Assembly (NCBI GenBank): GCA_022530585.1
Contig: CP092821.1
Span: 262,222-326,221 of the forward strand
Reading direction: 5' to 3'
DNA: 64,000 nucleotides
Origin: Candidatus Nealsonbacteria bacterium DGGOD1a
GTDB taxonomy: Bacteria; Patescibacteriota; Minisyncoccia; Minisyncoccales; UBA5738
In this document: positions 4,361-63,511 of the stretch, in pieces
Position numbering within the stretch: the first letter of the stretch is position 1
Layout of the letters: each line of letters starts with the position of its first letter
Position numbers and translations under genes: made by a program
The notes under the pieces: generated by a model
What the model was told of the DNA's origin: nothing
Databases searched by the model: none
Seen by the model: only the letters and a program-made list of their open reading frames with translations

Positions 4361-6160
4361 ATGAGCAAAAAATACGATATTGGAGTTATCCGCCATTCTC
4401 TGGCGCATATAATGGCGGCGGCTGTTAAAAGCATATATCCGGAGGCGAAGTTCGGAATGGGCCCGGCGATCGAAAACGGCTTCTATTATGATTTTGATTT
4501 GGGCCAAAACAAGCTGTCGCCCGAAAGTTTAAAGGAAATCGAGGTCAAAATGAAAAAGCTGATCGGCGGCGGGGTTAAATTTGAAAGAAAAGAAATTGCC
4601 ATTGACGAGGCCAAAAAGATTTTTCGCGATCAACCGTTCAAATTGGAAATCGCGGCCGATTTGGAAATTCAAGGCGAAAAAGAAGTTTCGGTTTATCAAA
4701 GCGGCGAGTTTGTCGATTTGTGCCGCGGGCCGCATGCGGAAGCGGCCAATGATTTGCCGATTGACGGGTTCAAATTGACAAAGATCGCGGGCGCGTATTG
4801 GAAGGGCGATGAAAAGAATCAAATGCTCACTCGCGTTTACGGCGCGGCGTTTGAAAACAAAAAGGAATTGGATGATTATTTAAAAAATCAAGAAGAAGCG
4901 GAAAAGCGCGACCATCGCAAGCTGGGCAAAGAGCTGGATTTGTTCCATATTGATGAAGATGCCGGATTGGGATTGGCGCTTTGGCATCCCAAGGGTGCGA
5001 TGTTGTGGCGCGTGATCGAAGATTTTTGGTATGACCAGCATTTGAAAAACGGATATGATTTGGTCCGTTCGCCTCACATTGGCAACCGCCGGTTGTGGGA
5101 AAAATCCGGCCATTGGGGTTTTTATTCATCAAGCATGTATCCGGCGATGGAAGTGGGCCAGTCATTAGAGGATTTGAAAGCCGGCAAAAAAGTTGAAGAA
5201 TCCGAACAATATTTGCTCAAGCCGATGAATTGTCCGTTTCATGTCCGGATTTATAAAAATGATTTGCATTCGTACCGCGAATTTCCGTTTCGTTGGGCCG
5301 AGTGCGGCACGGTTTATCGCTTTGAGAAAAAAGGCGAGCTTTCCGGATTGACGCGGGTGCGCGGTTTTACGCAGGATGATGCGCATATCATTTGCCGCAA
5401 AGACCAGGTTAAGGATGAATTAAAGCGCGTGGTTGATTTTATTGAATTTATTTACGATTCATTCGGTTTCAAGATGGATTCGGTTAATGTCTATCTTTCG
5501 TTGCGCGATCCGCAGAATAAAGAGCATTACGCCGGCGACGATGAAGGCTGGGAATTTACCGAAAGCGTTTTGTGCGATGTGGCAAAAGAGAAAAACCTTA
5601 ATTTCAAAGAGGAATTGGGCGAGGCGGCGTTTTACGGGCCGAAATTGGACTTTAAGATCAAAGATGCCCTTGGTCGCGAGTGGCAATGCTCAACTTTGCA
5701 ATTCGATTTTAATTTGCCGGAAAGATTCGATATGTTGTTTGCAAACCAAAAAGGAGAGCAGGAAAAACCGTATATGTTGCACCGCGCGCTATTCGGTTCG
5801 TTTGAAAGATTTATCGGACTGTTGATTGAACACTATGCCGGTGCGTTTCCCGTTTGGCTGTCTCCGGTTCAGGTGAAAATTTTATCGGTGGGAGAAGCGC
5901 ATATTGAATTCTGCCAAAAACTTGCCGATGAATTCAGGCAGGCGGGCATCCGCATTGAAGTTGATTTTGCCGATGAAACTTTGGGCAATAAGATCCGCAA
6001 AGCCGCGGGCGAAAAAGTTCCCTATGTTTTGGTGGTGGGCGATAAAGAGATGCAATCTGAAGTGTTAGCCGTGCGCGACCGTGGTGCCAAAACCGCCCGC
6101 GCCATTTCCAAATCCGACTTCATCTCCGAAATTTGCGCCAAAATCCAATCCCGCAATTAA
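4361..6160 (+). CDS. thrS: Threonyl-tRNA synthetase
   Basis: 599-aa ORF. HSLAHIMAAAV, RGFTQDDAHIIC, FYGPKLDF and HRALFGSFERFIG are ThrRS / class II aaRS motifs, followed by a C-terminal anticodon-binding domain. Preceded by a T-box. Confidence 0.95.
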   Translation: MSKKYDIGVIRHSLAHIMAAAVKSIYPEAKFGMGPAIENGFYYDFDLGQNKLSPESLKEIEVKMKKLIGGGVKFERKEIAIDEAKKIFRDQPFKLEIAADLEIQGEKEVSVYQSGEFVDLCRGPHAEAANDLPIDGFKLTKIAGAYWKGDEKNQMLTRVYGAAFENKKELDDYLKNQEEAEKRDHRKLGKELDLFHIDEDAGLGLALWHPKGAMLWRVIEDFWYDQHLKNGYDLVRSPHIGNRRLWEKSGHWGFYSSSMYPAMEVGQSLEDLKAGKKVEESEQYLLKPMNCPFHVRIYKNDLHSYREFPFRWAECGTVYRFEKKGELSGLTRVRGFTQDDAHIICRKDQVKDELKRVVDFIEFIYDSFGFKMDSVNVYLSLRDPQNKEHYAGDDEGWEFTESVLCDVAKEKNLNFKEELGEAAFYGPKLDFKIKDALGREWQCSTLQFDFNLPERFDMLFANQKGEQEKPYMLHRALFGSFERFIGLLIEHYAGAFPVWLSPVQVKILSVGEAHIEFCQKLADEFRQAGIRIEVDFADETLGNKIRKAAGEKVPYVLVVGDKEMQSEVLAVRDRGAKTARAISKSDFISEICAKIQSRN

Positions 6161-6165
6161 ATTTG

Positions 6166-6771
6166 ATAATGTTTTCACCCTGTCGGTCTTGCCGCAGGGA
6201 ACAACTTAAGGGGGTGGTTTGGTAGGGGGATATCCCCCTACCATCACGCGCGAAAGCGCGTCCGTGTTACAATAAGCCAATATGGAGCAAGAAAAGCGGG
6301 ATATCTGGCGTTGGTACCACAATGTTTCCGAATGTTATTACCACATCCAGATTACGGTCAAATATCGCAAAGCATTACTGAACGAAAAGGTGATTGCCGC
6401 AATTGTCGAGAGCCTGAAAGGATTTATGGAACGGTACGCCATTGAGATCAGCCATGTGGGATTCGACCAAGACCACGCCCATATTCTGGCAAGATTCCTG
6501 CCGAAGTATTCCGGCGACCAGGTTATCAAAATAATAAAAAGCATTACCGCGCGCGAGGTGTTCCGGCAAGTTCCCGAAATTAAAAAAGAACTCTGGGGTG
6601 GAGAGTTCTGGACAGACGGCTATTATATCGCTACGATCAGCGCACGCGGTAATAGGAAAGTTATTGAGCGATACATTCAAAACCAAGGCAGACCAAAAGA
6701 TGTGAGCCAGTTACGATTGTTTGAATTGTAGCTGCGAACGCCCTGCGGTCTTGCCGCAGGGTCATTTACAT
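6166..6771 (+). mobile_element. IS200-type insertion sequence (tnpA only), copy 1
   Basis: A ~606-bp block nearly identical to 55410-56016. Subterminal hairpins are CCCTGTCGGTCTTGCCGCAGGG (left) and CCCTGCGGTCTTGCCGCAGGG (right). The left edge is ambiguous by the shared ATAAT. Confidence 0.85.
6282..6731 (+). CDS. tnpA: IS200/IS605-family Y1 (HUH) transposase TnpA
   Basis: 149 aa. HUH motif in DHAHILARF, and the catalytic-Tyr region GYYIATIS near the C-terminus. Confidence 0.9.
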   Translation: MEQEKRDIWRWYHNVSECYYHIQITVKYRKALLNEKVIAAIVESLKGFMERYAIEISHVGFDQDHAHILARFLPKYSGDQVIKIIKSITAREVFRQVPEIKKELWGGEFWTDGYYIATISARGNRKVIERYIQNQGRPKDVSQLRLFEL

Positions 6772-13411: not shown

Positions 13412-13476
13412 AAAGGATGTTTCCTTTGGAATCCTCATTCTTTTTGTTCCCCGCAGCAAGCTGACGGGGTATAAAA
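13412..13476 (-). repeat. Family-A repeat, partial copy (hairpins 1-2)
   Basis: The reverse complement reads ATACCCCGTCAGCTTGCTGCGGGGAACAAAAAGAATGAGGATTCCAAAGGAAACATCCTTT. Confidence 0.8.
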
Positions 13477-13537
13477 ATAATAAAAAAAGACCATTTCGGG
13501 ATTCTTAAGGAAGGGAGGATAACAACCGCTCACCGGG

Positions 13538-16904: not shown

Positions 16905-17525
16905 ATGAGTCAAGAATTCGCATCCGCCGGCCTTACCGCCGGCCAGTTGAACGCAATAGTGAAAATGCTTGGCGGCCACGACAAGGCTTTGGCCTTCCTT
17001 CGCGGCGAGATAACAGTTTCTGCCTCTCGAAATTGGCGGGAGGAGGGCGGCGTGATTTATTTCACCGTCACTTCTGATGGCACGACCGGGGCACAGTGGA
17101 TTGAACGCCTTGAGAGTAAAGAATTTCGTGTCGGAAGCTACGCCAAAAGCGTACTTCTTTCATCGGCTTTCAAACCGACCAGCGGCGTGACGACCGAGGT
17201 CGCCGTCCTTAAGGGAGAACGCTTTGAGGATGACGAGCGGATTACCAAGAATATCCGCGCCGAGGGCGATAAGCGCAAATTTGGGAAGCCGAATGCCGAG
17301 GTTGTGTGCCTGATTTGTGAGATGTTCACGGATGAGGAGATCGAGGCCATGGGGCTTTGGTGGATCGTGGTAATGCACGAGCCCATCAAAGATTCCGATG
17401 GCGATCCGAGCCTCCTTGGCGCGTACCGCTATGGCGATGGCGTCCGGCTGTACGCGTATTGGGACAAGCCCGGCTACCGGTGGGATCGCGGCGGCGGGTT
17501 CGCGCTCGCCGTTTCGCAAGTTTAG
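16905..17525 (+). CDS. DGR target (variable) protein
   Basis: 206-aa ORF whose last 43 codons form the VR. The C-terminus ...YAYWDKPGYRWDRGGGFALAVSQV resembles CLec-type DGR variable regions. The N-terminal ~160 aa carry no recognised domain. Confidence 0.85.
   Translation: MSQEFASAGLTAGQLNAIVKMLGGHDKALAFLRGEITVSASRNWREEGGVIYFTVTSDGTTGAQWIERLESKEFRVGSYAKSVLLSSAFKPTSGVTTEVAVLKGERFEDDERITKNIRAEGDKRKFGKPNAEVVCLICEMFTDEEIEAMGLWWIVVMHEPIKDSDGDPSLLGAYRYGDGVRLYAYWDKPGYRWDRGGGFALAVSQV
17391..17519 (+). other. DGR variable region (VR)
   Basis: 129 nt homologous to 17853-17981. There are 12 differences, all opposite TR adenines. Confidence 0.9.
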
Positions 17526-17852
17526 ATTTTGGGACTTATGGTCTTTGAACTTTGGTTTTTTGACCCTTAGTCCTTATCCCTTTTTCGATCTGTCGGAATT
17601 GGGATTTTTTAATAAAATAATGATATACTCAATTTTGGCAGTAGGTGAATGTGCGAGCGGTTAAGGCTTCTCGCCGCCGAACCCAGTATCCATGCGTCGG
17701 GAATATTCGCGGTTACGGCTGCGGATAGGGCGGCGCATGCAGAAACTTCAAAAAAGAAGATACTTGGCGCGAGATATTAAGGCATTGCGATGCCGGATTC
17801 GATTCAATCCCAAGAGTATTCAAGGGGTGGTGGCATAGGCGATATTTCGCGC

Positions 17853-17981
17853 AATTCCGATGGCGATCCAAACCTCCTTGGCGCGAACCGCAATGACGAT
17901 GGCGTCCGGCTGAACGCGTATTGGGACAAGCCCGGCAACCGGTGGAATCGCGACAACGGGTTCGCGCTCGCCGTTTCGCAA
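17853..17981 (+). other. DGR template region (TR)
   Basis: A non-coding copy of the VR rich in AAC/AAT codons (NSDGDPNLLGANRNDDGVRLNAYWDKPGNRWNRDNGF). 28 adenines by hand count, 12 of which differ in the VR. Confidence 0.9.
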
Positions 17982-17987
17982 CTCTCT

Positions 17988-18401
17988 TCATTTCTCCCCC
18001 GTTTTCACGGGAGAGTTTTGTTTTGATAGCTGTCCGTTCCAGCCGCCAAGCATCCTGCCGGCTTCGTCAAGCTTCACGGAAAGCGCGATGTATTTTTTGT
18101 TATCAAGCGATTTGGTTTCCCAGAGAATCATAAGAAGTACGCGAAGCGTATCCATTTTTTTGATTGCCAGTCGGACATATGGATGCTTTTCTTCTCGCGA
18201 AAGAAAACTGGCGGCCGCGATCGCTTCTATTACTTCAATAAACAATGTATCAATGCGCTGGCCCAGAGAGTAGCGATGTGTTTTGGGTAATTCCTGATAA
18301 AATTTGTACCATAAAAGATACGATTCTTTCACCTTGCCCAAAACCGGTAAAATTCGCGGTGGCGGTACTTCATGGATATGTCCAGAATTCAATATCAACA
18401 T
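17988..18401 (-). CDS. avd: Four-helix-bundle protein, DGR accessory variability determinant (Avd) type
   Basis: LPVLGKVKESYLLWYKFYQELPKTHRYSLGQRIDTLFIEVIEAI...LRVLLMILWETKSLDNKKYIALSVKLDEAGRMLGGW matches the PF05635-like family. The N-terminal ~80 codons of the track ORF were rejected. The start is at 18401 or 18413. Confidence 0.8.
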   Translation of the reverse strand: MLILNSGHIHEVPPPRILPVLGKVKESYLLWYKFYQELPKTHRYSLGQRIDTLFIEVIEAIAAASFLSREEKHPYVRLAIKKMDTLRVLLMILWETKSLDNKKYIALSVKLDEAGRMLGGWNGQLSKQNSPVKTGEK

Positions 18402-19385
18402 ACATATAATCATATCATTTCGCTCGAAAATTTGCTTGAAGCGTGGACGGAATTTGCAAAAGGAAAACGATCGCGCGCGGATGTTCAGGGTTTTGAGCGA
18501 AATCTCATGGCAAATATTATTTCGCTTCACCGCGCGCTTGCGGCGAAAACATACGCCCATTTTGTATATCGAATCTTTAAGATATCCGATCCGAAGCCGC
18601 GCGTTATTCACACGGCAAGCGTTCGGGATCGGCTGTTGCATCATGCGCTGTACCGGAAACTGGCGCCGTTTTTTGCTAAAACTTTTATTGCTGATTCAAA
18701 TTCCTGCCAGATGGGCAAGGGGACGCATCGAGCTCTTCGTAGGTTTAATAAATTTATCAATGTTGTTTCCAAAAATAACACCAAAACGGTTTGGGTGCTT
18801 AAATGCGATATAAGAAAATTTTTTGCAAGCATCGATCAGACAATCTTGTTAGGCATAATGGCGCAATATATTCCAGACAAGAATATCCTTTGGCTTGTTT
18901 CGGCCATTGTTGGAAGTTTTTATTCAAGCACCAAAGGCAAAGGTCTTCCTTTGGGTAATTTGACATCCCAACTTTTATCCAACATTTACATGAATGAATT
19001 TGACCAGTTTGCGAAGCACCGCCTCAAAGCGGAGTTTTATCTTCGTTATGCCGATGATTTTGCCGTTCTTTCGGGGAACCGAGCATATGTTGAAAACATT
19101 TTACCGTTGATGCGAGAATTTTTAGGGCAAAAATTGAAGTTATCTATGCATCCAGATAAGGTTTTTATACGGACCGTCTTTTCGGGTATTGATTTTCTCG
19201 GTTGGGTTCATTTTCCGGATCATCGGGTTTTAAGGACAACGACCAAAAAGAGAATGTTTGAAAATATCAGAATAAAAAATGGTAAATTTGAAACAATTCA
19301 GTCATATATCGGGCTTGTTGGTTATGGCAATGGTTGGAAATTGCGGCAAGAAATTGAAAACCAACCGTCCCAGCGCCGAAATTGA
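18372..19385 (+). CDS. DGR-type reverse transcriptase
   Basis: 337 aa. SLENLLEAWTEFAKGKR N-terminus, the DGR-specific LGNLTSQ motif, and a YADD box (LRYADDFAVL). Confidence 0.9.
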   Translation: MDMSRIQYQHTYNHIISLENLLEAWTEFAKGKRSRADVQGFERNLMANIISLHRALAAKTYAHFVYRIFKISDPKPRVIHTASVRDRLLHHALYRKLAPFFAKTFIADSNSCQMGKGTHRALRRFNKFINVVSKNNTKTVWVLKCDIRKFFASIDQTILLGIMAQYIPDKNILWLVSAIVGSFYSSTKGKGLPLGNLTSQLLSNIYMNEFDQFAKHRLKAEFYLRYADDFAVLSGNRAYVENILPLMREFLGQKLKLSMHPDKVFIRTVFSGIDFLGWVHFPDHRVLRTTTKKRMFENIRIKNGKFETIQSYIGLVGYGNGWKLRQEIENQPSQRRN

Positions 19386-22594: not shown

Positions 22595-22597
22595 AGA

Positions 22598-22792
22598 ATA
22601 GACCTACTGCCCAAAGATTTCCTGCTGTGCCGCGCCTCTTTTGGCTGCGAAAAACTCATCAGTCGGCGGCAGACTTAGTTTAAGTATGCCTTCCTCGCTT
22701 TATTAAAAACGAGACTGCGAGCAGACCTTCTTCGTTTTTCTCGCTCAAAAGATACGCGGCTCGCTACGAAAATCTTTAGGCAGCAGGTCTAA
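22598..22792. repeat. Family-C element (conserved core, copy-specific long inverted arms), copy 1
   Basis: Arms are TAGACCTACTGCCCAAAGATTTC / GAAAATCTTTAGGCAGCAGGTCTA. The core GGCTGCGAAAAACTCATCAGTCGGCGGCAGACTTAG..AAGTATGCCTTCCTC..TTTTTCTCGCTC is shared with 32836-33005 and 40048-40211. Confidence 0.75.
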
Positions 22793-22813
22793 TAAAAAAC
22801 AAACATCAAACCA

Positions 22814-32173: not shown

Positions 32174-32839
32174 ATGAGACAACGAATTGTAAAACTGGTA
32201 AAAGTGTTATTGATAATGGCGGGCGCGCTGATCGCGGCGGCGATTGTTTTTGACGCGATCGTCGTATTCTCCGAAAGAGGGATAATCCATAATAGAGTCG
32301 AAGATTTGCCTTCGGTTGACGCGGTTTTGGTGCTGGGCGCGGCGGTATACAGGAACGGCCAAATGAGCGCGATTTTTAACGATCGGGCGAGCGTGGCGCT
32401 GGAGGTTTATAAATCCGGGAAAGTTAAAAAGATTTTAGTGAGCGGAGATCACAGCCGCGGCGATTATGACGAGGTGAACATCGCCAAAAGATTCTTTTTA
32501 AAAAACGGCGTCCCCGGCGAAGATATATTCGTTGACTATGCCGGTTTTGACACTTATTCCAGCGTTTACCGCGCCAGAGAGATATTCCAAGTTCGATCGA
32601 TGATTGTTTCCACGCAGAATTTTCATTTGCCGCGGGCGTTGTATTTGGCACGCCAACTGGGAATTGAGGCTCATGGTATCAGCGCGGATTTAAGATTGTA
32701 TGATCTTGGTTATTATAATGTTTTGCGGGAAAACGCGGCGCGCGTTAAAGCTTTTTGGGATATTATAACCAATGCCCGGCCGCGTTATTTGGGCGGCATT
32801 ATTCCAATTACCGGCGATGGCCGCGCTTCTTGGGACTAG
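32174..32839 (+). CDS. SanA/YdcF (DUF218) family protein
   Basis: N-terminal TM helix. LVLGAAVY...ILVSGDHSRGDYDEV is typical of SanA-like DUF218 proteins. Confidence 0.7.
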   Translation: MRQRIVKLVKVLLIMAGALIAAAIVFDAIVVFSERGIIHNRVEDLPSVDAVLVLGAAVYRNGQMSAIFNDRASVALEVYKSGKVKKILVSGDHSRGDYDEVNIAKRFFLKNGVPGEDIFVDYAGFDTYSSVYRAREIFQVRSMIVSTQNFHLPRALYLARQLGIEAHGISADLRLYDLGYYNVLRENAARVKAFWDIITNARPRYLGGIIPITGDGRASWD

Positions 32840-33005
32840 AGGGTTTGTCGCCGAATTAGCTTCAACTGCAATTTCCATTTTTCGGCGGCAAAGAATTCAT
32901 CATTCGTCGCCGGATTTAGCTTAAATATGCCTCCTCATTCTTCATTCTTTTCGCTCGAAAACCGAAAATTTCGTTCTGAAGCCAATTCGGCGACAGACCC
33001 TAGAG
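32836..33005. repeat. Family-C element, copy 2
   Basis: Arms are CTAGAGGGTTTGTCGCCGAATTAGCTTC / GAAGCCAATTCGGCGACAGACCCTAGAG. The core CAACTGCAATTTCCATTTTTCGGCGGCAAAGAATTCATCATTCGTCGCCGGATTTAGC..ATATGCCTCCTC..TTTTCGCTCGAAAA..GAAAATTTCGTTCTGAA is shared with the other copies. It overlaps the SanA stop codon. Confidence 0.75.
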
Positions 33006-33104
33006 TGGCGCGCGGCGCTTGACATCTATGTTATAATGGTCTAACATTAAGTTATATATAAATAACATATTTCCGTTAAAAACAATAGCGGAGGATGATA
33101 CAAT

Positions 33105-33482
33105 ATGAACCAAAAAACATTTTATACGGTTAGGATTGTTTTTGCGATGGTGATCGCGATGGTTTGTTCGATTTCGGTGACGCAGGGAAACTATATTTTG
33201 CCGATAATCATCGGCATAACCGCGGCATTCGCGCTGTATGCGATGAAAAAGAAGGTTAGCGGCGTATTGGCCGATGAACGCGATTACAATATCGCGGGCA
33301 ACGCGGCGCGCTGGTCATTGAACCTTTACGCGGTTTTCGCGGCAATCGGATCAATGGTTTTGATGGCGGTCCGCGCCGGCAATCCGCAATTTGAACTGGC
33401 GGCGCAAATTTTGGCCTATTCGGCGTGCGCGTTGCTGATCGCGCAAAGCTTGTTGTTCAAATATTTTCAAAATCGCGAATGA
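33105..33482 (+). CDS. DUF2178-like membrane protein
   Basis: 125 aa with 4 TM helices. It is coupled by an ATGA overlap to the downstream XRE-type HTH gene, a common pairing. Confidence 0.55.
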
Positions 33483-33676
33483 AATTCACAACAAAAATAA
33501 AAGAATACCGCCAGCGGAAAAATCTGACTCAAGAGGATTTGGCCAATATCGTCAATGTCCGGCGCGAAACCATTGTTTTTTTGGAGCAGGGCAAATATGT
33601 GCCGTCGCTGAAACTGGCGCACGATATCGCGCATGTTTTTGGAAAATCAATTGAGGGAATTTTTTTCTTTGATTGA
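33479..33676 (+). CDS. XRE-family helix-turn-helix transcriptional regulator (YozG-like)
   Basis: 65 aa from the ATG at 33479. [36 protein letters not shown]. Confidence 0.8.
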
Positions 33677-33723
33677 ATATTTTTTTGCTTTACATTTTTC
33701 ATTTTTAGTTTTACGCTTTTAGC

Positions 33724-34530
33724 ATGCCCGAACTACCGGAAGTTGAAACAATCAGGCGGCAGTTAAATGACGCGGTGGTTGGCAAAACAATCGGCCGGGT
33801 GGAAATTTTGGAGCCCAAAATTTTCATCGGCGATCAAAAGTCCATTACCGGCCAAAAAATTGCCGGCATTGGCCGCGTTGCCAAGGTTTTACGCATATTT
33901 CTTGAAAACGGCAGCGCGATTTTGGCGCATTTCAAGTTAAACGGCCAATTTCTTCTGGACACGGGAAAGGAAAAATTCGACACGCGGTTTACGCGCGCGA
34001 TTTTGCATTTTGACGACGGATCGAGTTTGCTTTTCAACGATCCGCGCAAATTCGCGTGGATGAAGGTGATGAAAAATTTCAAGGAAGAAAAAACCGGCGC
34101 GATCGAACCATTTAAGGATAACTTCAATTTGGAAAATTTTTCAAGCATCATTTCCAAAACCCGCAAACCGATCAAGATATTGTTGATGGATCAGGAAAAG
34201 ATCGGCGGCATCGGTAATATCTATGCCAATGAATCGCTGTTTGCCGCCGGGATTGATCCGTTTCGGCCCGCCAATTCGCTTGAATCCGAAGAAATAAAAA
34301 AGCTTTACCGGGCCATTCCGAAAATTCTGCAAAAAGCCATTGACTGCAAGGGTTCGTCGGGTAAAGATGAATGGTACCGGCAGCTGAACGGCCGGACCGG
34401 CGGTTATCAGGAACATTTTTTGGTTTACCAGCGCGACGGCCAAAAATGCCCGAAAAAATGCGGTGGCGAAATCAAGCGCGCCAAACAAGGCGGCCGCAGT
34501 ACTTTTTACTGTTCAAAATGTCAGAAATAA
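33724..34530 (+). CDS. mutM: Formamidopyrimidine-DNA glycosylase
   Basis: MPELPEVETIRR N-terminus, an H2TH region, and a C-terminal zinc finger CPKKCGG...YCSKCQ. Confidence 0.9.
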   Translation: MPELPEVETIRRQLNDAVVGKTIGRVEILEPKIFIGDQKSITGQKIAGIGRVAKVLRIFLENGSAILAHFKLNGQFLLDTGKEKFDTRFTRAILHFDDGSSLLFNDPRKFAWMKVMKNFKEEKTGAIEPFKDNFNLENFSSIISKTRKPIKILLMDQEKIGGIGNIYANESLFAAGIDPFRPANSLESEEIKKLYRAIPKILQKAIDCKGSSGKDEWYRQLNGRTGGYQEHFLVYQRDGQKCPKKCGGEIKRAKQGGRSTFYCSKCQK

Positions 34531-34612
34531 AGTAAAATAAATACCCCGACATCAATGTATCTTTTTATTTTTGATTTTGTTTTTGCGTTAGTCGGGAATA
34601 GAATAAAAAAAT

Positions 34613-34885
34613 ATGAAAAACATTAAATCAATTTTATTCTTTGTTTTCGTGGTCGGGCTATCGGCGGTGGCGATGGATATGCAGGCGCAAGCCGAGATTC
34701 AGCGGCAATTGGACGGCGTTTCGTCAACGCTTGATGCCGCGGCCGCGCAAATTGCCAGCGTTAAAGAAAAAGGCGTTGTCCAAACCGTTTGGGACAACGC
34801 AACCGCGCCGATTGCGGCCATCTGGCAACAAATCACCGGAATTTTCGGCCAATTATCATCGATATTTTCCACCGTTTCCAAATAA
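34613..34885 (+). CDS. Small secreted protein (90 aa)
   Basis: Signal-like N-terminus MKNIKSILFFVFVVGLSAVAMDMQA followed by an Ala/Gln-rich helical body. It ends 6 nt before the radical SAM gene. Confidence 0.5.
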   Translation: MKNIKSILFFVFVVGLSAVAMDMQAQAEIQRQLDGVSSTLDAAAAQIASVKEKGVVQTVWDNATAPIAAIWQQITGIFGQLSSIFSTVSK

Positions 34886-34891
34886 TCAAAT

Positions 34892-36274
34892 ATGGATAAT
34901 TTACAGAGGGATTATAGGTTTGTCAGCTATACCGGTTCGCTTTGCAATGAATGTTTGAAAAAGATTGATGCCAAGATTGCCGAGAAAAACGGCAAGATTT
35001 ATATTCTAAAAAACTGCCCCGAGCACGGGCAGTTTTGCGAGTTGTTGGAAGAAGATGCCGGCTTCTATTTAAACCACGGTGATTATGACAAGCCGGGAAC
35101 GATTTCAAAAATCCAGACCAAGGTTAAAAACGGCTGTCCTTTCGATTGCGGTTTGTGTCCGAACCATGACCAGCATACTTGCAATGGCTTGATTGAAATT
35201 ACCAATGCCTGCGATTTGGGTTGTCCGACTTGTTACGCCAACAGCGGGACCGGCGATTTTTTGCCGTTGGAGAAGATCAATGGAATGCTGGATTTTTTTG
35301 TTGATTCCGAACACGGCCAAGCGGAAATTCTGCAAATATCGGGCGGCGAGCCGACAATGCATCCGCAAATCATTAATATCATTAAATTGGCGCGGACAAA
35401 AAAGATAAAATATATTTTGTTAAACACGAATGGGTTGCGTTTAGCCAAAGATGAAAAATTTGCGGAAGAATTGGGCCGGTTCAAAGGCGGGTTTGAAATT
35501 TATTTGCAGTTTGACGGGTTATCCGAAAAATCGGCAATGGCAATTCGCGGCCGGAATGTGATTGAAGATCGAAAAAGGGCGGTGGCCAATCTTTCAAAAC
35601 ACCATGTGCCGATAACTTTGGTGGCCACGGTTGTGCGCGGCGTGAACGATGACCAAATTGGCGAGGTTTTTAATTACGCGATCGGCGAAGAATGGATCCG
35701 GGGCATCAACTACCAACCGGTGGCATTTTTTGGCCGTCTGCCCGAAGGCGAGGACATAAAAAACCGGATCACGATGACTGGAATTTTGAAAACGCTGGAA
35801 ATCCAAACCAAAGGGATGGTGAAATTAGCGGATTTTATTCCTTTACCGTGCGATGTGGAGCGTGTGGCGATTAGTTATCTGTTTAAACAGAAAGGAGAGC
35901 TTATTCCGTTGATCCGGGATATCGACATCAAACAATTTTTGCCGGCAATCCGCAACACATTCCAATTCGCGCCCGACAAAGTGGTGAAAGAGATCGCGGA
36001 AACTTTGGATAAAAAAGGAAATTGCTGCCAGATAATGGGTTTGTTCAAGGATTTAAAGAAAACAGTCTTACCGCCAAATTATCTTTTGATGAGCCAGGAT
36101 CAGAAAGCGGAATTCATTAACAACAACACCTTCCGAATCAGCGCCACATCGTTTGTCGACAAATACAACTTCGATGCCAAATCGATGCAAAAAGAATGCG
36201 TCCACATCATCACCCCGGACCTGAAAAAGATTCCGTTTTCGGCGTATAATATGATACACAGGTATGCTAATTGA
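34892..36274 (+). CDS. Radical SAM protein, MJ0619/Tes (class-D-like) family
   Basis: CX3CX2C in NACDLGCPTCY. N-terminal Cys/His ribbon (CNEC...CPEH) and CPFDCGLCPNHDQHTC auxiliary-cluster motif. ISGGEPT and INYQPVAFFGR are also present. Confidence 0.6.
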   Translation: MDNLQRDYRFVSYTGSLCNECLKKIDAKIAEKNGKIYILKNCPEHGQFCELLEEDAGFYLNHGDYDKPGTISKIQTKVKNGCPFDCGLCPNHDQHTCNGLIEITNACDLGCPTCYANSGTGDFLPLEKINGMLDFFVDSEHGQAEILQISGGEPTMHPQIINIIKLARTKKIKYILLNTNGLRLAKDEKFAEELGRFKGGFEIYLQFDGLSEKSAMAIRGRNVIEDRKRAVANLSKHHVPITLVATVVRGVNDDQIGEVFNYAIGEEWIRGINYQPVAFFGRLPEGEDIKNRITMTGILKTLEIQTKGMVKLADFIPLPCDVERVAISYLFKQKGELIPLIRDIDIKQFLPAIRNTFQFAPDKVVKEIAETLDKKGNCCQIMGLFKDLKKTVLPPNYLLMSQDQKAEFINNNTFRISATSFVDKYNFDAKSMQKECVHIITPDLKKIPFSAYNMIHRYAN

Positions 36275-36842
36275 AATTATTATCAATGGTATTGTCGGAT
36301 TGTGCATTTTCGCGGTGATCGCGGCGGTGGCTGCGGATTTTTTGTTTTTTCAAGAGAGAAATGACCAAAAAAAAGAGAAGAAAAGCCTGGTGGCGACATT
36401 CACGATGTTTATGTTTTTCTTTTTGTTCTATACGATTGAACGGAATGGCTGGGGAGTGTTGCAAGTCGGGAGCGACGCGGTGAGAATCGCGATGATCGCG
36501 GTCGGGTTGGTCTTGATGGTTATTGGCGCGGCGGTGAATATCGCGGGCCGGTTCAAATTGGGAAACAATTGGTCGGATAATATCAAAATTTATCTTGGCC
36601 ATTCGCTGGTTAATGCCGGGGTTTATGCTTGGGTGCGGCATCCGTTGTATGCATCACTTGTCTGGATGTTCTATGGCTCAAGCCTGATTTACTCCAACTG
36701 GCTGGCGTTTTTGGCAAACACTTTGATATTCATTCCGGCAATGTATTATCGCGCCAGACAGGAAGAAAAAATGTTGTTGCAGGAATTCGCGGAATATTCA
36801 AATTACAAAAAGAAAGTCGGTATGTTTTTTCCCAAATTTTGA
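36264..36842 (+). CDS. Isoprenylcysteine carboxyl methyltransferase (ICMT)/phospholipid methyltransferase family membrane protein
   Basis: 5 TM helices. GVYAWVRHPLYASLVWMFYG and YYRARQEEKMLLQEF motifs. It overlaps the radical SAM stop by 11 nt. Confidence 0.7.
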   Translation: MLIEIIINGIVGLCIFAVIAAVAADFLFFQERNDQKKEKKSLVATFTMFMFFFLFYTIERNGWGVLQVGSDAVRIAMIAVGLVLMVIGAAVNIAGRFKLGNNWSDNIKIYLGHSLVNAGVYAWVRHPLYASLVWMFYGSSLIYSNWLAFLANTLIFIPAMYYRARQEEKMLLQEFAEYSNYKKKVGMFFPKF

Positions 36843-36940
36843 ATTTGAGTTTTTGTATTTAAGGTCGTTCCTCGGCGTACTCGTCGAGGTGCGACCTCGG
36901 CAAACTGTATTTTGTAATTTGATTTTGTAATTATAAAACC

Positions 36941-37408
36941 ATGAAAATTTCTTATCGTCCGGTTGCGGTTCCAAAGGGCGCGTTTATTTTTTGCCGTTAT
37001 TCGATCGCAATTCTTGTTTGGCTGGCGTTTATTTTGCGTGATCCTTGGATTCTTGTTTTAGTTGGCGCAATTATGTTTTTGTCGGCGGTTTTGAAAATCA
37101 GACGCGCGCCCATGATAGTTTTATACGGTTATACGATTGATAAAATTTGGAAATCGCCAAAAGAGATATTGAACGAAAGCGCGATGAAGTTCGCGCATAT
37201 CTTGGCAACGGGGTTAAGCGTTATTTGCCTGGTTTTTATTTTATTTATTAATTCGCATGTCGGCTGGTTTTTAACTTTTTCTTTCGCGATTATGAAAACT
37301 ATTTCCGCGGTCGGTTTTTGCCCGGCGTCGAAACTTTACGAATGTGCGGGGAGCGATAAATGCTGTTCGTTTGCCAAGGGGATTAAAAAAGCCGGCAAAA
37401 CATGTTAG
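36941..37408 (+). CDS. DUF4395-like membrane protein with Cys-rich C-terminus
   Basis: 4 TM helices and a C-terminal GFCPASKLYECAGSDKCCSF. It overlaps the lgt start by 7 nt. Confidence 0.45.
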   Translation: MKISYRPVAVPKGAFIFCRYSIAILVWLAFILRDPWILVLVGAIMFLSAVLKIRRAPMIVLYGYTIDKIWKSPKEILNESAMKFAHILATGLSVICLVFILFINSHVGWFLTFSFAIMKTISAVGFCPASKLYECAGSDKCCSFAKGIKKAGKTC

Positions 37409-38175
37409 ATGAACATTTCCACCCGGAGAATTGGGGAATCCGGCCGGTGTTGTTTTCGATAAACGGGTTTGATGTCCCGGCTTATGGTTTTTTTGTCGGT
37501 TTGGCGATAATTGTCGGCGCGTTTGTTTATTGGCGCGAAGCGAATAAATATCGACAAGGCGATGACCATGGTTTTTATTTGGCGGTTGCCGGACTGCTGG
37601 GCGGCGCGGTTGGCGCCAAACTTCTGGAGTGGATTATCAATTACCAATTTGTGGCGGCGCATTTTTATGATCCGCGCGCGTTTCTTTACGGCCGCACGAT
37701 TGTGGGCGGTTTGATCGGCGGGACGATCGCGGTTTTAATTACCAAGCGCAAAATGAAAATTACTCGGCGGATGGGTAACGCGTTCGCGCCCGCGATTGCG
37801 CTGGGCGCGGCCATCGGCCGGATTGGCTGTTTCTTGGCGGGCTGTTGTTTCGGCAAACCGACCAATATGGGTTGGGGAGTTAATTTCGGCGATGGTATTT
37901 TGCGTTACCCGACGCAACTTTTTGAATCTGCGTTTATGCTGGCGATGTTTTTTTATCTGCGGTATAAAACAAAAAAAAATAATTTAAAACCCGGCCGGCT
38001 TTTTACCGAACTGATGCTGGCCTATTTCGCTTTCCGTTTTTTTCTTGAATTCATTAAAGCCGAACCGGCGATGATCGCCGGTTTGACGGTATTCCAAATT
38101 ATAAGTATTATTGTTATGCTTTATTTAATATTCGTTAAAGAAAAAATCTTGAATTTAATTTTAACTAAAAAATAA
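37402..38175 (+). CDS. lgt: Prolipoprotein diacylglyceryl transferase
   Basis: GRTIVGGLIGG, GRIGCFLAGCCFGKPT and YPTQLFES motifs. Confidence 0.9.
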   Translation: MLDEHFHPENWGIRPVLFSINGFDVPAYGFFVGLAIIVGAFVYWREANKYRQGDDHGFYLAVAGLLGGAVGAKLLEWIINYQFVAAHFYDPRAFLYGRTIVGGLIGGTIAVLITKRKMKITRRMGNAFAPAIALGAAIGRIGCFLAGCCFGKPTNMGWGVNFGDGILRYPTQLFESAFMLAMFFYLRYKTKKNNLKPGRLFTELMLAYFAFRFFLEFIKAEPAMIAGLTVFQIISIIVMLYLIFVKEKILNLILTKK

Positions 38176-38495
38176 TGGAAGATCAAAAACCGGTGAATAA
38201 TCAAAAAATCAGCGGGTTGCGAAAGCCCGTTTATTTGATCATAGGTATTATTTTTGGCGCTTTAGTATGGTTTGCCGCCGGGTATCTGCTTTTGACATTA
38301 TCAAGTTATGTTTTTTATTTTAACTATGTTTTCCCGATATTCCTTGTTGATATGCTGATTGTCGCTGTTTTGGTTTGGTCTTTGCCTCGCGCGATGAAAA
38401 AAAAGTTTATTATTATCGGTATGCTTTTATTTTTTGCGGCAGTGTTTTTAATACCCGGCCCTTGCTCGATCTTTTCATTTTTGAGTGAGTTATGA
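38175..38495 (+). CDS. Small membrane protein
   Basis: 106 aa with 3 TM helices. Its start overlaps the lgt stop by 1 nt. Confidence 0.45.
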   Translation: MEDQKPVNNQKISGLRKPVYLIIGIIFGALVWFAAGYLLLTLSSYVFYFNYVFPIFLVDMLIVAVLVWSLPRAMKKKFIIIGMLLFFAAVFLIPGPCSIFSFLSEL

Positions 38496-38543
38496 TAACT
38501 AAAATCACGGTAAATCAAAAACAGAATTATTTAAAGTAAGACT

Positions 38544-38840
38544 ATGTACGGGATGCCGGCAAAAAGATTTGAGCCTGATATTTACAAGGATCGCAGAAAA
38601 TTAAAGGTGAGCGACTTTCTCGCCGGGTTTTTATGCGGTTTGATATTTTGGCTTTTATCTTTTTGGATTGCGTGGTATGTCGCGCCGCTGATAATCGCCG
38701 CGCTTTGCGCCGCCGGATTATTTCTGAAATTTCGCCGCCGCTATTTTATTTACGGCGCGCTCGCCTTGATCTTTTTTCCGTTTGTTGTTTGGGCGACGCT
38801 CATCTGGTTCTACGCCGGCCGCAACGAAATCAAAAGCTAG
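38544..38840 (+). CDS. Small membrane protein
   Basis: 98 aa with 3 TM helices. Confidence 0.45.
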   Translation: MYGMPAKRFEPDIYKDRRKLKVSDFLAGFLCGLIFWLLSFWIAWYVAPLIIAALCAAGLFLKFRRRYFIYGALALIFFPFVVWATLIWFYAGRNEIKS

Positions 38841-38865
38841 AAATAAATCCATTTTTGATACAGGT

Positions 38866-39099
38866 CTAATCCCTAAACTTCCGGCGGTAAATTACAAACA
38901 GATTGTGAGAGTCGCGAAAAGATTGGGATTTTATTGTGCGCGGAAGACAAAAGGAAGCCATTAGATTTGGTGTTGCGATGGCAGCGGCAGACAAACCACG
39001 ATTCCAAATCATTGGAATAGGTTATTTAAGAGAAAAACATTTGCAAGTATTTTAAATGATATTGGAATCACCGTTGAGGATTTTATGAAAATAAAATAA
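38866..39099 (+). pseudogene. hicA: HicA-family toxin remnant with in-frame TAG and no start codon
   Basis: IPKLPAVNYKQIVRVAKRLGFYCARKTKGSH-TAG-IWCCDGSGRQTTIPNHWNRLFKRKTFASILNDIGITVEDFMKIK matches HicA end to end. The stop lies at 38962-38964. Confidence 0.65.
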
Positions 39100-39156
39100 T
39101 TTTGTATTTAAAAAACGCCCTTTAATAATCTTGGGGCGTTTTTCAGGAAAACAAAA

Positions 39157-39885
39157 CTAGAATTTGCAGAGGTTGTCTTCAAACTTGCCGCCGGATTTGT
39201 CGCACCAATCCCGGGACAGGCCTTTGCATTGGTTTGAGGTGACTATCCATGTGCCGCCGTTGTCGGTGCAGGCCGCTTCCACTTGCGCGTTGGCGCGTTT
39301 GTCGGTCAATTCTTTGAACATCACGCCATCAAGAATGAAACTTTTTGAAGTTGGAACCGTGGGCAGGCTTTCCACCGCGTCGCCGTCGATTTTCCAGTCG
39401 AGATAATCGACTTTCACGGCTTGGTTGACGATTGCGATATTCCGCAGATCAATACGGTCGCCGATGGCCACGGCGTTTGAGCCCACAATCAACCTTTTTT
39501 CTTCGTCAACCAGGGCGATTGCGGCGTAATAATAAACTCCCACATCATTGGCGGTTTTTTGGGTTAAAATTACCGCCCAATCGGGCTGGCCATCGGAGTT
39601 GAGATCGCCCGTAACCGGGGTTCCCGCGATTTGGGTGGTAATCTTGGACCCGTCGGCAGATGTGTTCTCGGACTTGCCGTTTTCCAGAGAGACGAGTTGA
39701 TATTCGACGAAATATCTCGCGTTCAACGGGTTTAATTCGCCGGCGACCGGTTGGTTTTCCGCGGGGTTTTGAGTCGTATTTTTGGGCAGGTTTGATAGGA
39801 TTGCCGCGGCGATGATAACCACGGCCAAAACCGCAATTCCGATAAAGATGATTTTTTTGTGCGCGAGAATCGTATTTATATTCAT
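39157..39885 (-). CDS. Anchored extracytoplasmic protein
   Basis: Start moved to the ATG at 39885 (MNINTILAHKKIIFIGIAVLAVVIIAAAIL). TGDLNSDGQPDWAVIL FG-GAP-like stretch and a Cys-rich C-terminus. Confidence 0.5.
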   Translation of the reverse strand: MNINTILAHKKIIFIGIAVLAVVIIAAAILSNLPKNTTQNPAENQPVAGELNPLNARYFVEYQLVSLENGKSENTSADGSKITTQIAGTPVTGDLNSDGQPDWAVILTQKTANDVGVYYYAAIALVDEEKRLIVGSNAVAIGDRIDLRNIAIVNQAVKVDYLDWKIDGDAVESLPTVPTSKSFILDGVMFKELTDKRANAQVEAACTDNGGTWIVTSNQCKGLSRDWCDKSGGKFEDNLCKF

Positions 39886-39924
39886 ATCTAAATTATTTGT
39901 TATTAAAACCAGTATAACACCGAG

Positions 39925-39992
39925 AAGCAAATTTGTGGAGGTTTACCTCGGAATTCTGCTTTTTGAGGTCAATCTTCAACGAATTTGCGGTA
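39925..39992. repeat. Family-D long hairpin element, copy 2
   Basis: GCAAATTTGTGGAGG (39927-39941) pairs with CTTCAACGAATTTGC (39974-39988). Homologous to 13538-13600. Confidence 0.7.
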
Positions 39993-40047
39993 ACGGATGG
40001 CCGCCGCCGGTTGGATTGCTTGCTCAACTTCGGCGGCAAGTATATTA

Positions 40048-40211
40048 TGAGAGTGTAGAAAAACTATATTTCAACTGCAATTTCCATCTTTCGGCTGCGA
40101 AAAATCCGTCAGTCGGCGGCAGACTTTAAGCCAAGTATGCCTTCTCCTTCCTCATTTTTCTCGCTCGAAATATGAAAATTTCGTTCTGAAAATAGTTTTT
40201 CCACGCTCTCA
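40048..40211. repeat. Family-C element, copy 3
   Basis: Arms are TGAGAGTGTAGAAAAACTATATTTC / GAAAATAGTTTTTCCACGCTCTCA. The core CAACTGCAATTTCCATCTTTCGGCTGCGAAAAATCCGTCAGTCGGCGGCAGACTTTAAG..AGTATGCCTTCTCC..TTTTTCTCGCTCGAAAT..GAAAATTTCGTTCTGAA is shared with the other copies. Confidence 0.75.
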
Positions 40212-40227
40212 CTATGATAAATACGAC

Positions 40228-41910
40228 ATGACACAAGAACAGGCGTTGGAAATTTTAAAATCAGGCAAAAACGCGTTCATTACCGGCCCGGCGGGGAGCG
40301 GCAAGACTTTTGTGTTGAACCGTTACATCGATTGGCTGAAAAGTTGCGGCATCAACGCGGCGATTACCGCGTCCACGGGGATCGCGGCCACCCATTTGAA
40401 CGGTATTACCATTCATTCATGGACCGGAATGGGCGTGCGCGATGAACTGGCTTCGCGCGATATAAAAGAACTGGTCAAGCGGGGATATTTGCGCCGCCGG
40501 TTTTTAAGTACCGGCGTTTTGATCATCGATGAAATATCGATGCTGGCCGGTTGCCAGTTGGAAATGGCCGATTTATTGTTTCGCGCGTTCAAACAGATTG
40601 ACGCGCCGTTTGGCGGCGCGCAGGTGGTTTTGTGCGGTGATTTTTTTCAACTGCCGCCAATCCGGCGGCGGATGAATGGGCAAGAGGTTCGTCCCAAAAG
40701 AGGCAGATCGCAGGCAAGCATGGATTTTAACGATGGCGACGGCGAGCCGGCGCCGCTGTTCGCCTATGGTTCGCGCGCGTGGCGCGAACTCGATTTGAAG
40801 ATTTGTTATTTGGACGAACAGCACCGGCAGAGCGATAAAGGTTTTTTGGCCGCACTCAACGCCATTAGGAGCAATTCCGCGGATGATGCCATTCGGCAAT
40901 ATCTGCAAACGCGCGTGGGCGCCAAGATTCAAATGAGCGTCGAGCCGACCAAGCTTTACACGCATAATGTTGATGTGGAAATTGAAAACAATCTGGAGTT
41001 GGCCAAAATTTCCGGCAAGGAATTTTATTACAAAATGGAACAGATCGGTCCGGCCGCGCTTTCGGAGCGGTTGCAAAAAAGCTGTTTGGCGCCGGAAGTC
41101 CTGCGCTTGAAAATCGGCGCGCGGGTGATGTTTGTGAAAAACAATTTTGAAGAGGGTTATGTCAACGGCACTTTGGGGGTGGTGGAAAAATTGGATGAAA
41201 GCCGGATTATGGTGCGTACCGCCGCGGGCGATTTGATGGATGTGGGGCTTGCCAGCTGGCACATTGCCGAGGAGGGCGATATTAAAGCCGAGATCAACCA
41301 GTATCCGCTGCGGCTGGCGTGGGCGATCACGGTGCACAAAAGCCAAGGGATGAGCTTGGACGCGGCCTTGGTTGATTTGAGACAGTCATTTGAGCCGGGG
41401 ATGGGTTATGTGGCGCTGTCGCGCGTGCGTTCGTCGGCCGGACTGTCGCTGGCCGGGTTCAACGAGATTGCGTTGCGGGTCAATGAAGAAGTTTTGGAGT
41501 TTGACGAAAAATTAAAAGAAAAATCCGCGGTCGCGGCCAAGGAATTGGCAATTTCGCCTTTCAAGTTCCGGAAGCCGGTTCCCGCCGCGCCGAGAAACAA
41601 AAAACCGGACACGGTTATCGTTACCCAAGGATTATTTGAGAAAGGATATTCTTTGGAGCAGATCGCCGAGGCGCGGCGGCTCAAGAAAGCGACGATCGTC
41701 GATCATTGCGAGAAGATAAAAGAAAAAGATCCGAACCTTGACTTTTCGCCGCTGGCCAAAGATGTGCCCGCGGGCAAATTGATTCAGCTCAAGGCCGCGT
41801 TGCGAAAATGCAAAGACGCCGATGGCAAGTTTCTTTTGAAGCCGGCCAAAGAATTGCTGGGCGATGATGCCGATTACGATGAATTGCGTTTGGCCCGATT
41901 GCTTTTGTAG
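40228..41910 (+). CDS. PIF1/RecD-like SF1 helicase with C-terminal HTH-like extension
   Basis: Walker A GPAGSGKTF, DEISML, GDFFQLPP, and ITVHKSQGMSLD...GMGYVALSRV. About 110 extra C-terminal residues. Confidence 0.8.
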   Translation: MTQEQALEILKSGKNAFITGPAGSGKTFVLNRYIDWLKSCGINAAITASTGIAATHLNGITIHSWTGMGVRDELASRDIKELVKRGYLRRRFLSTGVLIIDEISMLAGCQLEMADLLFRAFKQIDAPFGGAQVVLCGDFFQLPPIRRRMNGQEVRPKRGRSQASMDFNDGDGEPAPLFAYGSRAWRELDLKICYLDEQHRQSDKGFLAALNAIRSNSADDAIRQYLQTRVGAKIQMSVEPTKLYTHNVDVEIENNLELAKISGKEFYYKMEQIGPAALSERLQKSCLAPEVLRLKIGARVMFVKNNFEEGYVNGTLGVVEKLDESRIMVRTAAGDLMDVGLASWHIAEEGDIKAEINQYPLRLAWAITVHKSQGMSLDAALVDLRQSFEPGMGYVALSRVRSSAGLSLAGFNEIALRVNEEVLEFDEKLKEKSAVAAKELAISPFKFRKPVPAAPRNKKPDTVIVTQGLFEKGYSLEQIAEARRLKKATIVDHCEKIKEKDPNLDFSPLAKDVPAGKLIQLKAALRKCKDADGKFLLKPAKELLGDDADYDELRLARLLL

Positions 41911-42371: not shown

Positions 42372-42502
42372 TTTTTTGTCGGTTATTTTGCTTCCGAAAT
42401 TAGTATATACCAAGTATATATTCAAATATATACTTTTGTTATATTTTGCAATAACGGGAAAAATTACTTAAAATAATATCGGGCAACGGCCCGATTTTAT
42501 TT

Positions 42503-42615
42503 TTTTATACCCCGTCAGCTTGCTGCGGGGAAGAAAAAGAATGAGGAGTCCTTAGTAATCGGAAGTAATTTTCGAGGAAACATCCTCTGGTTGCGGCGGG
42601 GTTAATGCCCCGACG
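42503..42615 (+). repeat. Family-A repeat, variant copy with expanded hairpin 2
   Basis: ATACCCCGTCAGCTTGCTGCGGGGAAG..GAATGAGGAGTCC..GAGGAAACATCCTCTGG..GCGGGGTTAATGCCCCGAC. Hairpin 2 is GAGGA-AACA-TCCTC instead of CCAAAGGA-AACA-TCCTTTGG. Confidence 0.75.
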
Positions 42616-46584: not shown

Positions 46585-46625
46585 ACTTTAATTCTATCCG
46601 ATTATCAGTTTTTTCCAAAATGCAT

Positions 46626-46686
46626 CCCGCAGGAGCAAGACACCTGCGAAATATACAAACTTTCGCAGGTGTCTTGCTCCTGCGGG
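46626..46686. repeat. REP-B inverted pair upstream of the RAYT-like gene
   Basis: CCCGCAGGAGCAAGACACCTGCGAA ... TTCGCAGGTGTCTTGCTCCTGCGGG. Each unit is itself a hairpin CGCAGG-N9-CCTGCG. Confidence 0.85.
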
Positions 46687-46715
46687 ACTGGTTGCGGTAA
46701 AATAAAAAATATATT

Positions 46716-46810
46716 GATGGCGGGTTAATACCCCGCCATCAGCCAAAGGATGTTTCCTTTGGAATCCTCATTCTTTTTGTTCCCCGCAGCAAGCTGACGG
46801 GGTATAAAAA
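46716..46810 (-). repeat. Family-A repeat, full unit
   Basis: The reverse complement reads TTTTTATACCCCGTCAGCTTGCTGCGGGGAACAAAAAGAATGAGGATTCCAAAGGAAACATCCTTTGGCTGATGGCGGGGTATTAACCCGCCATC. Confidence 0.85.
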
Positions 46811-46869
46811 GAATAAAGTATGGCACAAAGAAAAGATGAGTTTATAAACGGGAGATTTATCATATCACT

Positions 46870-47535: not shown

Positions 47536-47544
47536 ATGTAAAAA

Positions 47545-47603
47545 TTCGCAGGTGTCTTGCTCCTGCGGCATTAAAAAGTTCGCAGGAGCAAGACACCTGC
47601 GAA
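47545..47603. repeat. REP-B pair downstream of the RAYT-like gene
   Basis: TTCGCAGGTGTCTTGCTCCTGCGG (47545-47568) and TTCGCAGGAGCAAGACACCTGCGAA (47579-47603). A further copy lies inside the CDS at 47012-47035. Confidence 0.85.
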
Positions 47604-51962: not shown

Positions 51963-52034
51963 TCCGGCGTGGCGCAACGGTAGCGCGGTTCGCTGTTAAC
52001 GAAAAGGTTGTAGGTTCGAATCCTACCGCCGGAG
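51963..52034 (+). tRNA. tRNA-Asn (anticodon GUU)
   Basis: Acceptor TCCGGCG/CGCCGGA, D arm GCGC-AACGGTA-GCGC, anticodon loop CTGTTAA, T arm GTAGG-TTCGAAT-CCTAC, discriminator G. CCA is not encoded. Confidence 0.9.
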
Positions 52035-62707: not shown

Positions 62708-62741
62708 TGAATAGTCGTTGTTGAATGGTCTTTTATTTTAT

Positions 62742-63491: not shown

Positions 63492-63511
63492 CGACCACAT
63501 AAGAAATACAT

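Follow-up and report, generated by a model that had tools for sequence, protein, structure and literature searches.

Three copies of an intergenic element in the window

The window, by which we mean the whole 64-kb stretch of Minisyncoccales DNA, from Candidatus Nealsonbacteria, analyzed here, holds exactly three copies of a small intergenic element, Family C, as found both with nhmmer and with a covariance model run with filters off. The copies (22598-22792, 32836-33005, and 40048-40211) share a single orientation, lie 7 to 10 kb apart among housekeeping genes, and contain a core that machine alignment finds common to all three. Three intergenic elements with a shared core had been picked out at these positions in a first-pass annotation of the DNA; nhmmer, the covariance model, and the alignment agree with it, and the concern raised there that the core similarity might be spurious is answered by the machine alignment, which upholds the core. 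Covariance-model (CM) scores of the window copies are 109 to 153 bits, and the remaining matches are generic small hairpins at about 20 bits. Copies 2 and 3 are 81% identical across 122 nt (blastn E = 8e-20). The boundaries of each copy and of its parts are given in Table 1. Copy 2 begins AGGGTTTG, and the left TAGA repeat beside it contains the stop codon of a DUF218 gene; copy 3 has no recognizable target duplication. The extra insert of about 30 nt noted earlier in the core of copy 1 was found again at very nearly that length.

TABLE 1 Features of the window referred to in the text
Feature	Position	Strand	Details
Copy 1, subfamily A	22600-22790	+	191 nt, AGACCTACTGCC to GGCAGCAGGTCT; private insert included; CM 109 bits
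Copy 1 target-site duplication	left 22597-22599, right 22791-22793	.	AAT, 3 bp; filled versus empty site
Copy 1 terminal inverted repeats (arms)	left 22600-22621, right 22768-22790	+	Homologous arms in L119, L199, L176, L129, and others
Copy 1 extra core insert	22693-22725 (boundaries approximate)	+	~31-33 nt; gap in all other aligned copies
Copy 2, subfamily B	32841-33000	+	160 nt, GGGTTTGTCGCC to GGCGACAGACCC; CM 153.5 bits
Copy 2 flanking direct repeat	left 32837-32840, right 33001-33004	.	TAGA, 4 bp; from the sequence
DUF218 gene	32174-32839
Copy 3, subfamily C	40048-40211	+	164 nt, TGAGAGTGTAG to CCACGCTCTCA; CM 147.6 bits
ISL3-family insertion sequence	56471-57851		419-aa transposase; ends GGCTCTTCTCC... 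and GGCTCTTCTCCATTTAATGTGA; 8-bp duplication AAATAAAT; interrupts an ORF
Two IS200-like insertion sequences	6166-6771, 55410-56016		99.5% identical; 149-aa Y1 transposase each; end hairpins CCCTG(T)CGGTCTTGCCGCAGGG
Two RAYT-like Y1_Tnp genes	46870-47535 (unit 46621-47603), 62718-63491 (unit 62638-63545)		Own inverted hairpin repeats flank each
Dispersed CCCCG...CGGGG hairpin repeat	1914-2035, 13412-13486, 42494-42558, 46701-46817
Diversity-generating retroelement	16905-19385		Target ORF 16905-17525; variable repeat 17392-17519; template repeat 17854-17981; reverse transcriptase 18372-19385
Region with 72-nt direct repeat	51963-53696		Repeats at 52028-52099 (start inside a tRNA gene, at its 3' end) and 53625-53696

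Across the family, copies are intergenic (3 of 115 fall inside predicted ORFs) and often sit 0 to 30 nt from the end of a gene. Between co-directional genes, the element has the same orientation as the pair in 24 cases and the opposite orientation in 15, which is near random, and copies also occur between divergent (9) and convergent (5) genes. The insertion targets are AT-rich intergenic DNA, and the genes beside the copies are housekeeping genes unrelated in function; no recurrent neighbor gene was found at Family-C loci. No sigma-70-like promoter or intrinsic-terminator-like site was seen inside the three window copies, and no ORF in a conserved frame was seen in Family C, which has short ORFs only; its stop-free runs and its depletion of plus-strand stop codons mostly reflect base composition.

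Family size, hosts, and arm subfamilies

Relatives were sought with a pattern of two core blocks in one genome per species and in JGI metagenomes, and nhmmer was then run on the fetched loci. The conservation of these two blocks is partly forced by the search pattern; the conserved segments GGCTGC, CTCGTCG, and ACTGCAAT lie outside it. Among the matches listed, there are at least ~140 Family-C copies in 231 fetched loci, with a median element length of 163 nt, and 101 of the 109 metagenome pattern matches listed are true members, the other 8 being due to chance. Named hosts, again among the matches listed, are mostly Patescibacteria (CPR), namely, Magasanik-, Nealson-, Staskawicz-, Kaiser-, and Saccharibacteria plus unclassified members, and a few contigs are binned elsewhere (Sphingobacteriales, on a 185-kb contig, Cytophagales, Omnitrophota, and Planctomycetia), and the family is represented in several classes of Patescibacteria and in a few further phyla. 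A pattern scan of viral contigs gave a single match, by chance, and blastn of copy 2 against the PLSDB plasmids and a phage collection returned nothing useful. When the whole window was compared with Rfam 15 at the gathering score, there was no match to any Family-C copy; at E ≤ 10, nothing lay over copy 1, and the two weak matches within 32700-40400 (E = 5.7 and 6.8) overlapped neither copy 2 nor copy 3. Published descriptions of such a family were not found by topic, and searches with sequence strings matched chance primers alone. A G+C-richer variant of the core with common flanks of its own (AGGAGGAGCAACGC... and ...CCCATTA) occurs at L083 4885-5000 and L109 5433-5522, on contigs that binning assigns to Planctomycetia and Omnitrophota, amid genes that are unrelated between the two.

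The arms that close the element are 22 to 25 bp long. They had been described as unrelated between the three copies, a view that was overturned once more copies were aligned: the arms are homologous terminal inverted repeats, the differences between them are compensatory changes, and in the wider alignment their length and their position relative to the core are constant. The alignment separates subfamilies A (AGACCTACTGC, copy 1), B (GGGTCTGTTGC, copy 2), and C (TGAGAGTG, copy 3) and, at other loci, D (GAGCCTATCTC) and E (GAAGCTATCTC, plus further variants). Within each subfamily the arms stay constant at unrelated loci, and for each window copy there are elements at other loci, in other genomes, whose arms are almost identical (L119, L199, and L176 for copy 1; L047, L123, and L203 for copy 2; L013 and L189 for copy 3). 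Conserved termini with target-site duplications, which the first-pass annotation had named as the mark of a plain MITE family and as evidence against its own reading, are thus present within each subfamily, but across subfamilies conservation is still higher in the core than at the termini. In a few loci, unrelated hairpin elements of about 75 to 85 nt are nested in the right arm of a Family-C copy (L227 5950-6025, which has a mirror copy in L139, and L215 7570-7650).

Target-site duplications and empty sites

Family-C elements are mobile. Target duplications were scored in 85 distinct copies with the boundaries placed at homologous alignment columns, and 1,000 re-pairings of the flanks served as the null. 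Direct repeats of at least 3 bp flank 30 of the 85 copies; 7.4 would be expected, and no shuffle gave more than 16. The length of the duplication is 2 to 5 bp and depends on the subfamily: subfamily A has 3 bp (ATT, AAT, TAT, TTA, and GTC), subfamily B has 5 bp (ATTAA, CTATG, TAACG, TTGTT, TTTAG, ATAAT, and ATAAA; 8 of 12 copies with 5 bp), and subfamilies D and E have TA flanks, often within CTAG. Copies that are 96 to 100% identical to each other are found between unrelated flanks; identity reaches 99 to 100% in the sets L194/L224/L130 and L162/L215. Contigs end inside more than 15 copies, the pattern expected when a repeat interrupts assembly.

An anti-sigma-like gene and an HlyD-family (efflux adaptor) gene, 220 nt apart, flank copy 1. 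In five relative contigs (L241 and L243 to L246; HlyD 71 to 92% identical), the orthologous gap is only 21 to 43 nt and copy 1 is absent; in a further relative (83% identical), the gap is 86 nt and adjoins a 253-aa gene. The filled site reads AATTAAAGAAT(AGACC...GGTCT)AATAAAAAAC, and the empty site in the closest relative, L241 (HlyD 92% identical), reads AATTAAAAAATAAAAAAC; this is a clean insertion in which AAT was duplicated. Empty palindromes, with the same arms but without the core, had been suggested as something to look for; at this site, the relative lacks the arms as well. Because the empty site is armless and the same arms occur at unrelated loci, we conclude that the arms are part of the element itself.

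The intergenic region that holds copy 3, upstream of a PIF1-like helicase gene, measures 297 nt versus 124 to 135 nt in relatives L247 to L250 (74 to 84% identical). No Family-C element was found upstream of PIF1 in these relatives by nhmmer, and their DNA is too diverged for a base-level junction. Differences in presence or absence were also seen outside the window: in L189, a paralogous empty site lies 2.6 kb from a subfamily C copy, with ATTT duplicated, and L225 differs from L126 at an orthologous site. As a separate observation, L250 carries a large Cas12-like gene (4398-4710, with REC1, RuvC, and NUC domains); a PBP-domain gene and a MazE-like gene separate it from the PIF1 helicase gene, which lies about 1.2 kb upstream, and the corresponding position in the window lacks it.

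The whole-length hairpin is under structural constraint

Each window copy folds into a single long imperfect hairpin (z of -6.4 to -9.9 against dinucleotide shuffles), which bears out the long closing inverted repeat originally described for each copy; the minus strand of the window copies is 10 to 25 kcal/mol more stable than the plus strand. An alignment of 51 sequences (A2) was folded with RNAalifold and used for the pair counts; a model-derived alignment (A3) was left out of the counts, as reverse-strand matches were mixed into it. The A2 consensus is one whole-length hairpin on either strand, with 57 pairs. Standard pairs make up 90.9% of cells compared with 69.7% in column shuffles, none of 500 of which reached the observed value, and when partners were slid by 1 to 3 columns, at most 48% of cells were paired. 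Double compensatory changes, with both sides altered, occur in 46 of the 57 pairs. The pairs form five stacked helices, all of which covary, including those 60 to 80 nt from the tips and helices 3 to 5 deep in the core. The covariation is strong, and the whole-length hairpin is under structural constraint.

Covariation of the inner pairings had been proposed from the three window copies, and of the two examples offered, one stood. The pairing GCCGCG..CGCGGC of copy 1, set against AATTTCCAT..ATGAAAATT of copy 3, falls in covarying helix 3, where 7 of 7 pairs have double changes. The other, CTGC..GCAG against CGGC..GCCG, turned out to be out of register: across 51 sequences it has 0 compensatory pairs, and its 63% pairing equals that of shuffles.

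The helices are separated by three conserved, asymmetric stretches that are unpaired or irregular (ACTGCAATTT / ATTTCGYTAC; GGCTGC / TCGCTCRAAA; CTCGTCG / GCCTCCTC), and the apical hairpin that closes the structure is variable. In the pair spectrum, 87.7% of cells are Watson-Crick, 3.2% are plus-strand G-U, 4.8% are A-C (equivalent to minus-strand G-U), and 4.3% are other combinations. Other mismatches are thus at least as common as wobble pairs, which show a modest minus-strand excess (140 versus 93).

Search for a mobilizing enzyme and other mobile DNA in the window

Neither the window nor 1.6 Mb of fetched loci yielded an autonomous partner whose ends match those of Family C. A search of the same 1.6 Mb for long elements bounded by Family-C arms, or for solo arms, gave only remnants, nested copies, and two elements with a different core inside Family-C-type arms, at L061 7392-7552 (AGAAGCTATCTCAAAAA, on a Bacteroidia contig) and L194 13336-13463 (AAGACCTCTTGCAAAATAAC, cut at the end of the fetched stretch). 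Finding the same arms around a different core fits arms that act as transposase-recognized ends shared by several non-autonomous families.

The transposases of the window belong to one ISL3 element and four Y1/IS200-like genes (Table 1). Both the ISL3 element and the Y1 genes were considered as mobilizers of Family C and rejected, as their ends are unlike those of Family C. Flanking inverted hairpin repeats are the arrangement typical of REP-associated transposases, and two of the Y1 genes have it; these hairpins and the ends of the IS200-like elements are unrelated in sequence to Family C. Another dispersed repeat of the window, a CCCCG...CGGGG hairpin, resembles the IS200-like end hairpins, and judging by its sequence may be a REP-like partner of the Y1 transposases. 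Two further features of the window were noted. The diversity-generating retroelement has 11 of 11 repeat differences at template A positions, and the 72-nt direct repeat encloses a 330-aa ORF without a Pfam match, in what may be a small element integrated at a tRNA gene.

Comparison with known systems

Family C most resembles palindromic repeats such as Correia (NEMIS) of Neisseria and ERIC/IRU of enterobacteria, which likewise are non-coding, intergenic, multi-copy sequences of ~100 to 170 bp with terminal inverted repeats, short target duplications, a whole-length hairpin, and no internal transposase. Correia and ERIC/IRU each occur within a single genus or family and are conserved from end to end; unlike them, Family C reaches across Patescibacteria classes into other phyla and combines fixed internal loops with divergent termini and subfamily-specific duplication lengths.

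Ends of known transposon groups offer partial likenesses. The end of Tn3, GGGGTCTGACGC..., is ~38 bp long, starts with GGGG, and gives 5-bp duplications, as in the Tn3-derived TIMEs. Many subfamily B copies, which start GGGGTCTG and have 5-bp duplications and AT-rich targets, may be similar. Of the copies compared, L203 starts GGGGTCTG, and most other B copies (such as L047, L123, and L191) start GGGTCTG after a non-G flanking base; the match to the Tn3 end stops after the first 8 to 12 nt of the subfamily B arm. The other subfamilies differ from TIMEs in starting AGACC, GAGCC, GAAGC, or TGAGAG and in having 2- to 4-bp duplications, and neither the window nor the fetched loci yielded a transposase of the Tn3 family. 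Stowaway-type MITEs (Tc1/mariner, IS630) are full-length palindromes like Family C, and the TA flanks of subfamilies D and E, often within CTAG, may hint at IS630; in the window, however, copies of subfamilies A, B, and C have AAT, TAGA, and no duplication, TA being found only in D and E at other loci, and no IS630-family gene was found. The GAG... starts with 2- to 4-bp duplications, in turn, may hint at IS5-group ends. Integron attC sites share with Family C the imperfect palindrome of variable sequence and the conserved unpaired bases and are recognized by structure, as Family C probably is, but they have conserved outer boxes and a variable center, occur one per cassette in an array, and lack flanking duplications. 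Family C is the opposite, with a conserved center, variable ends, and copies scattered kilobases apart among housekeeping genes.

Interpretation and alternatives

We consider it likely that Family C is a family of non-autonomous, MITE-like mobile DNA elements of ~160 to 170 bp in Patescibacteria, and that each window copy arose by an insertion of its own, from a different arm subfamily. The elements are small and non-coding, have shared terminal inverted repeats and target-site duplications, and occur as dispersed, polymorphic copies. They insert into AT-rich intergenic DNA and duplicate 2 to 5 bp, a length that varies with the arm subfamily. Since helices far from the tips covary while the internal loops are fixed, folding is probably required for propagation, either as single-stranded DNA or as an extruded cruciform; the conserved internal loops may form a protein recognition module, and the mobilizing enzyme would act in trans. 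Some features sit less easily with a MITE. Duplication length varies by subfamily (2, 3, and 4 to 5 bp), which is awkward for a single enzyme and points to more than one enzyme or a flexible one. The better conservation of the core than of the termini is the opposite of what is typical, and it is also unusual to find three arm subfamilies in one small genome and termini and helices that vary yet stay complementary.

Two related proposals, which together we regard as unlikely, give the core a larger part: that the loop core of the folded hairpin, single-stranded or cruciform, and not the termini, is read by the mobilizing protein, or that the core is a functional DNA or RNA module brought into several phyla on interchangeable inverted-repeat ends. 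In the core-reading version, the protein would cut at the base of a helix of arbitrary sequence, in a structure-guided transposition that would still make target duplications.

Three other explanations bear on the hairpin and its copies. The first-pass annotation left open a structured RNA or DNA family, and the structural constraint it supposed is supported by covariation along the whole hairpin; a dedicated structured RNA, whether cis-regulatory or a small RNA, with the hairpin as functional product and the dispersed copies as gene copies, we find improbable. The conserved internal loops, the better folding of the minus strand, and the excess of wobble-type mismatches on that strand speak for it, as do the purine-rich minus-strand loops (GAGGAGG / GACGAG), which judging from sequence could form tandem G-A pairs; the G-T/G-U excess leaves some room for a strand-specific folded RNA or for single-stranded DNA. 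Nevertheless, the near-random orientation relative to flanking genes, the lack of promoter-like or terminator-like sites in or at the copies, the low share of G-U pairs (just 3 to 5% of cells, about as common as other mismatches), and the insertion polymorphisms make such an RNA unlikely. The absence of an Rfam match and the functionally unrelated flanking genes also count against it, and transposition is shown by the target-site duplications, by the empty sites, and by the occurrence of near-identical copies at loci that are unrelated.

It is more doubtful still that these are REPIN-like elements moved as single-stranded hairpins by a Y1 (HUH, RAYT/IS200-like) transposase, even though REPINs are likewise dispersed intergenic hairpins with compensatory evolution, and Y1 genes are present in the same genome. 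Four Y1_Tnp proteins are encoded in the window, two of them from genes with their own inverted hairpin repeats, like RAYTs, and HUH enzymes such as those of IS608 and REP/RAYT systems recognize hairpins with conserved unpaired bases, a description that a pairing-constrained hairpin with fixed loops would suit. REPINs flank a RAYT gene, however, and Y1 transposition makes no target-site duplication, whereas Family C duplicates 2 to 5 bp of variable sequence. No Y1 gene is flanked by Family C (an inverted Family-C pair in L119 encloses nusB-like and L32 genes), the hairpins at the Y1 genes and IS200-like ends are of other sequence, and 160 to 170 nt exceeds known REPINs. The proposal that a small core inserts into the loops of pre-existing host palindromes, so that the arms would be host sequence, is very improbable. 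A few copies elsewhere do lie within host hairpins (L167, AAAACCCCGC / GCGGGGTTTT; L226, TTTTTGCAAAT / ATTTGCAAAAA), but for copy 1 it is refuted by the empty site, which lacks core and arms alike; the same arms recur at unrelated loci in different genomes, target duplications lie outside the arms, and the arms keep a constant length and position relative to the core.

Read as MITE-like mobile DNA, the family is previously undescribed, although its kind is already known from bacterial palindromic MITEs such as Correia and ERIC; to our knowledge, no miniature transposon family has been described in Patescibacteria. Either the core-reading or the core-module proposal, if true, would explain the three arm subfamilies in a genome of ~1 Mb, the free covariation of the helices, and the fixed asymmetric loops. 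Patescibacteria genomes are tiny, and Family C is abundant enough in them to break assemblies and lies within a few bases of gene starts and stops. It also differs between close relatives, and for these reasons it can serve in practice to mark variation among strains and is likely to be a source of regulatory change. With fixed loops next to covarying helices and termini, the family is a natural data set with which to ask if miniature transposons need to fold in order to move, and a starting point for identifying the enzyme that moves it.
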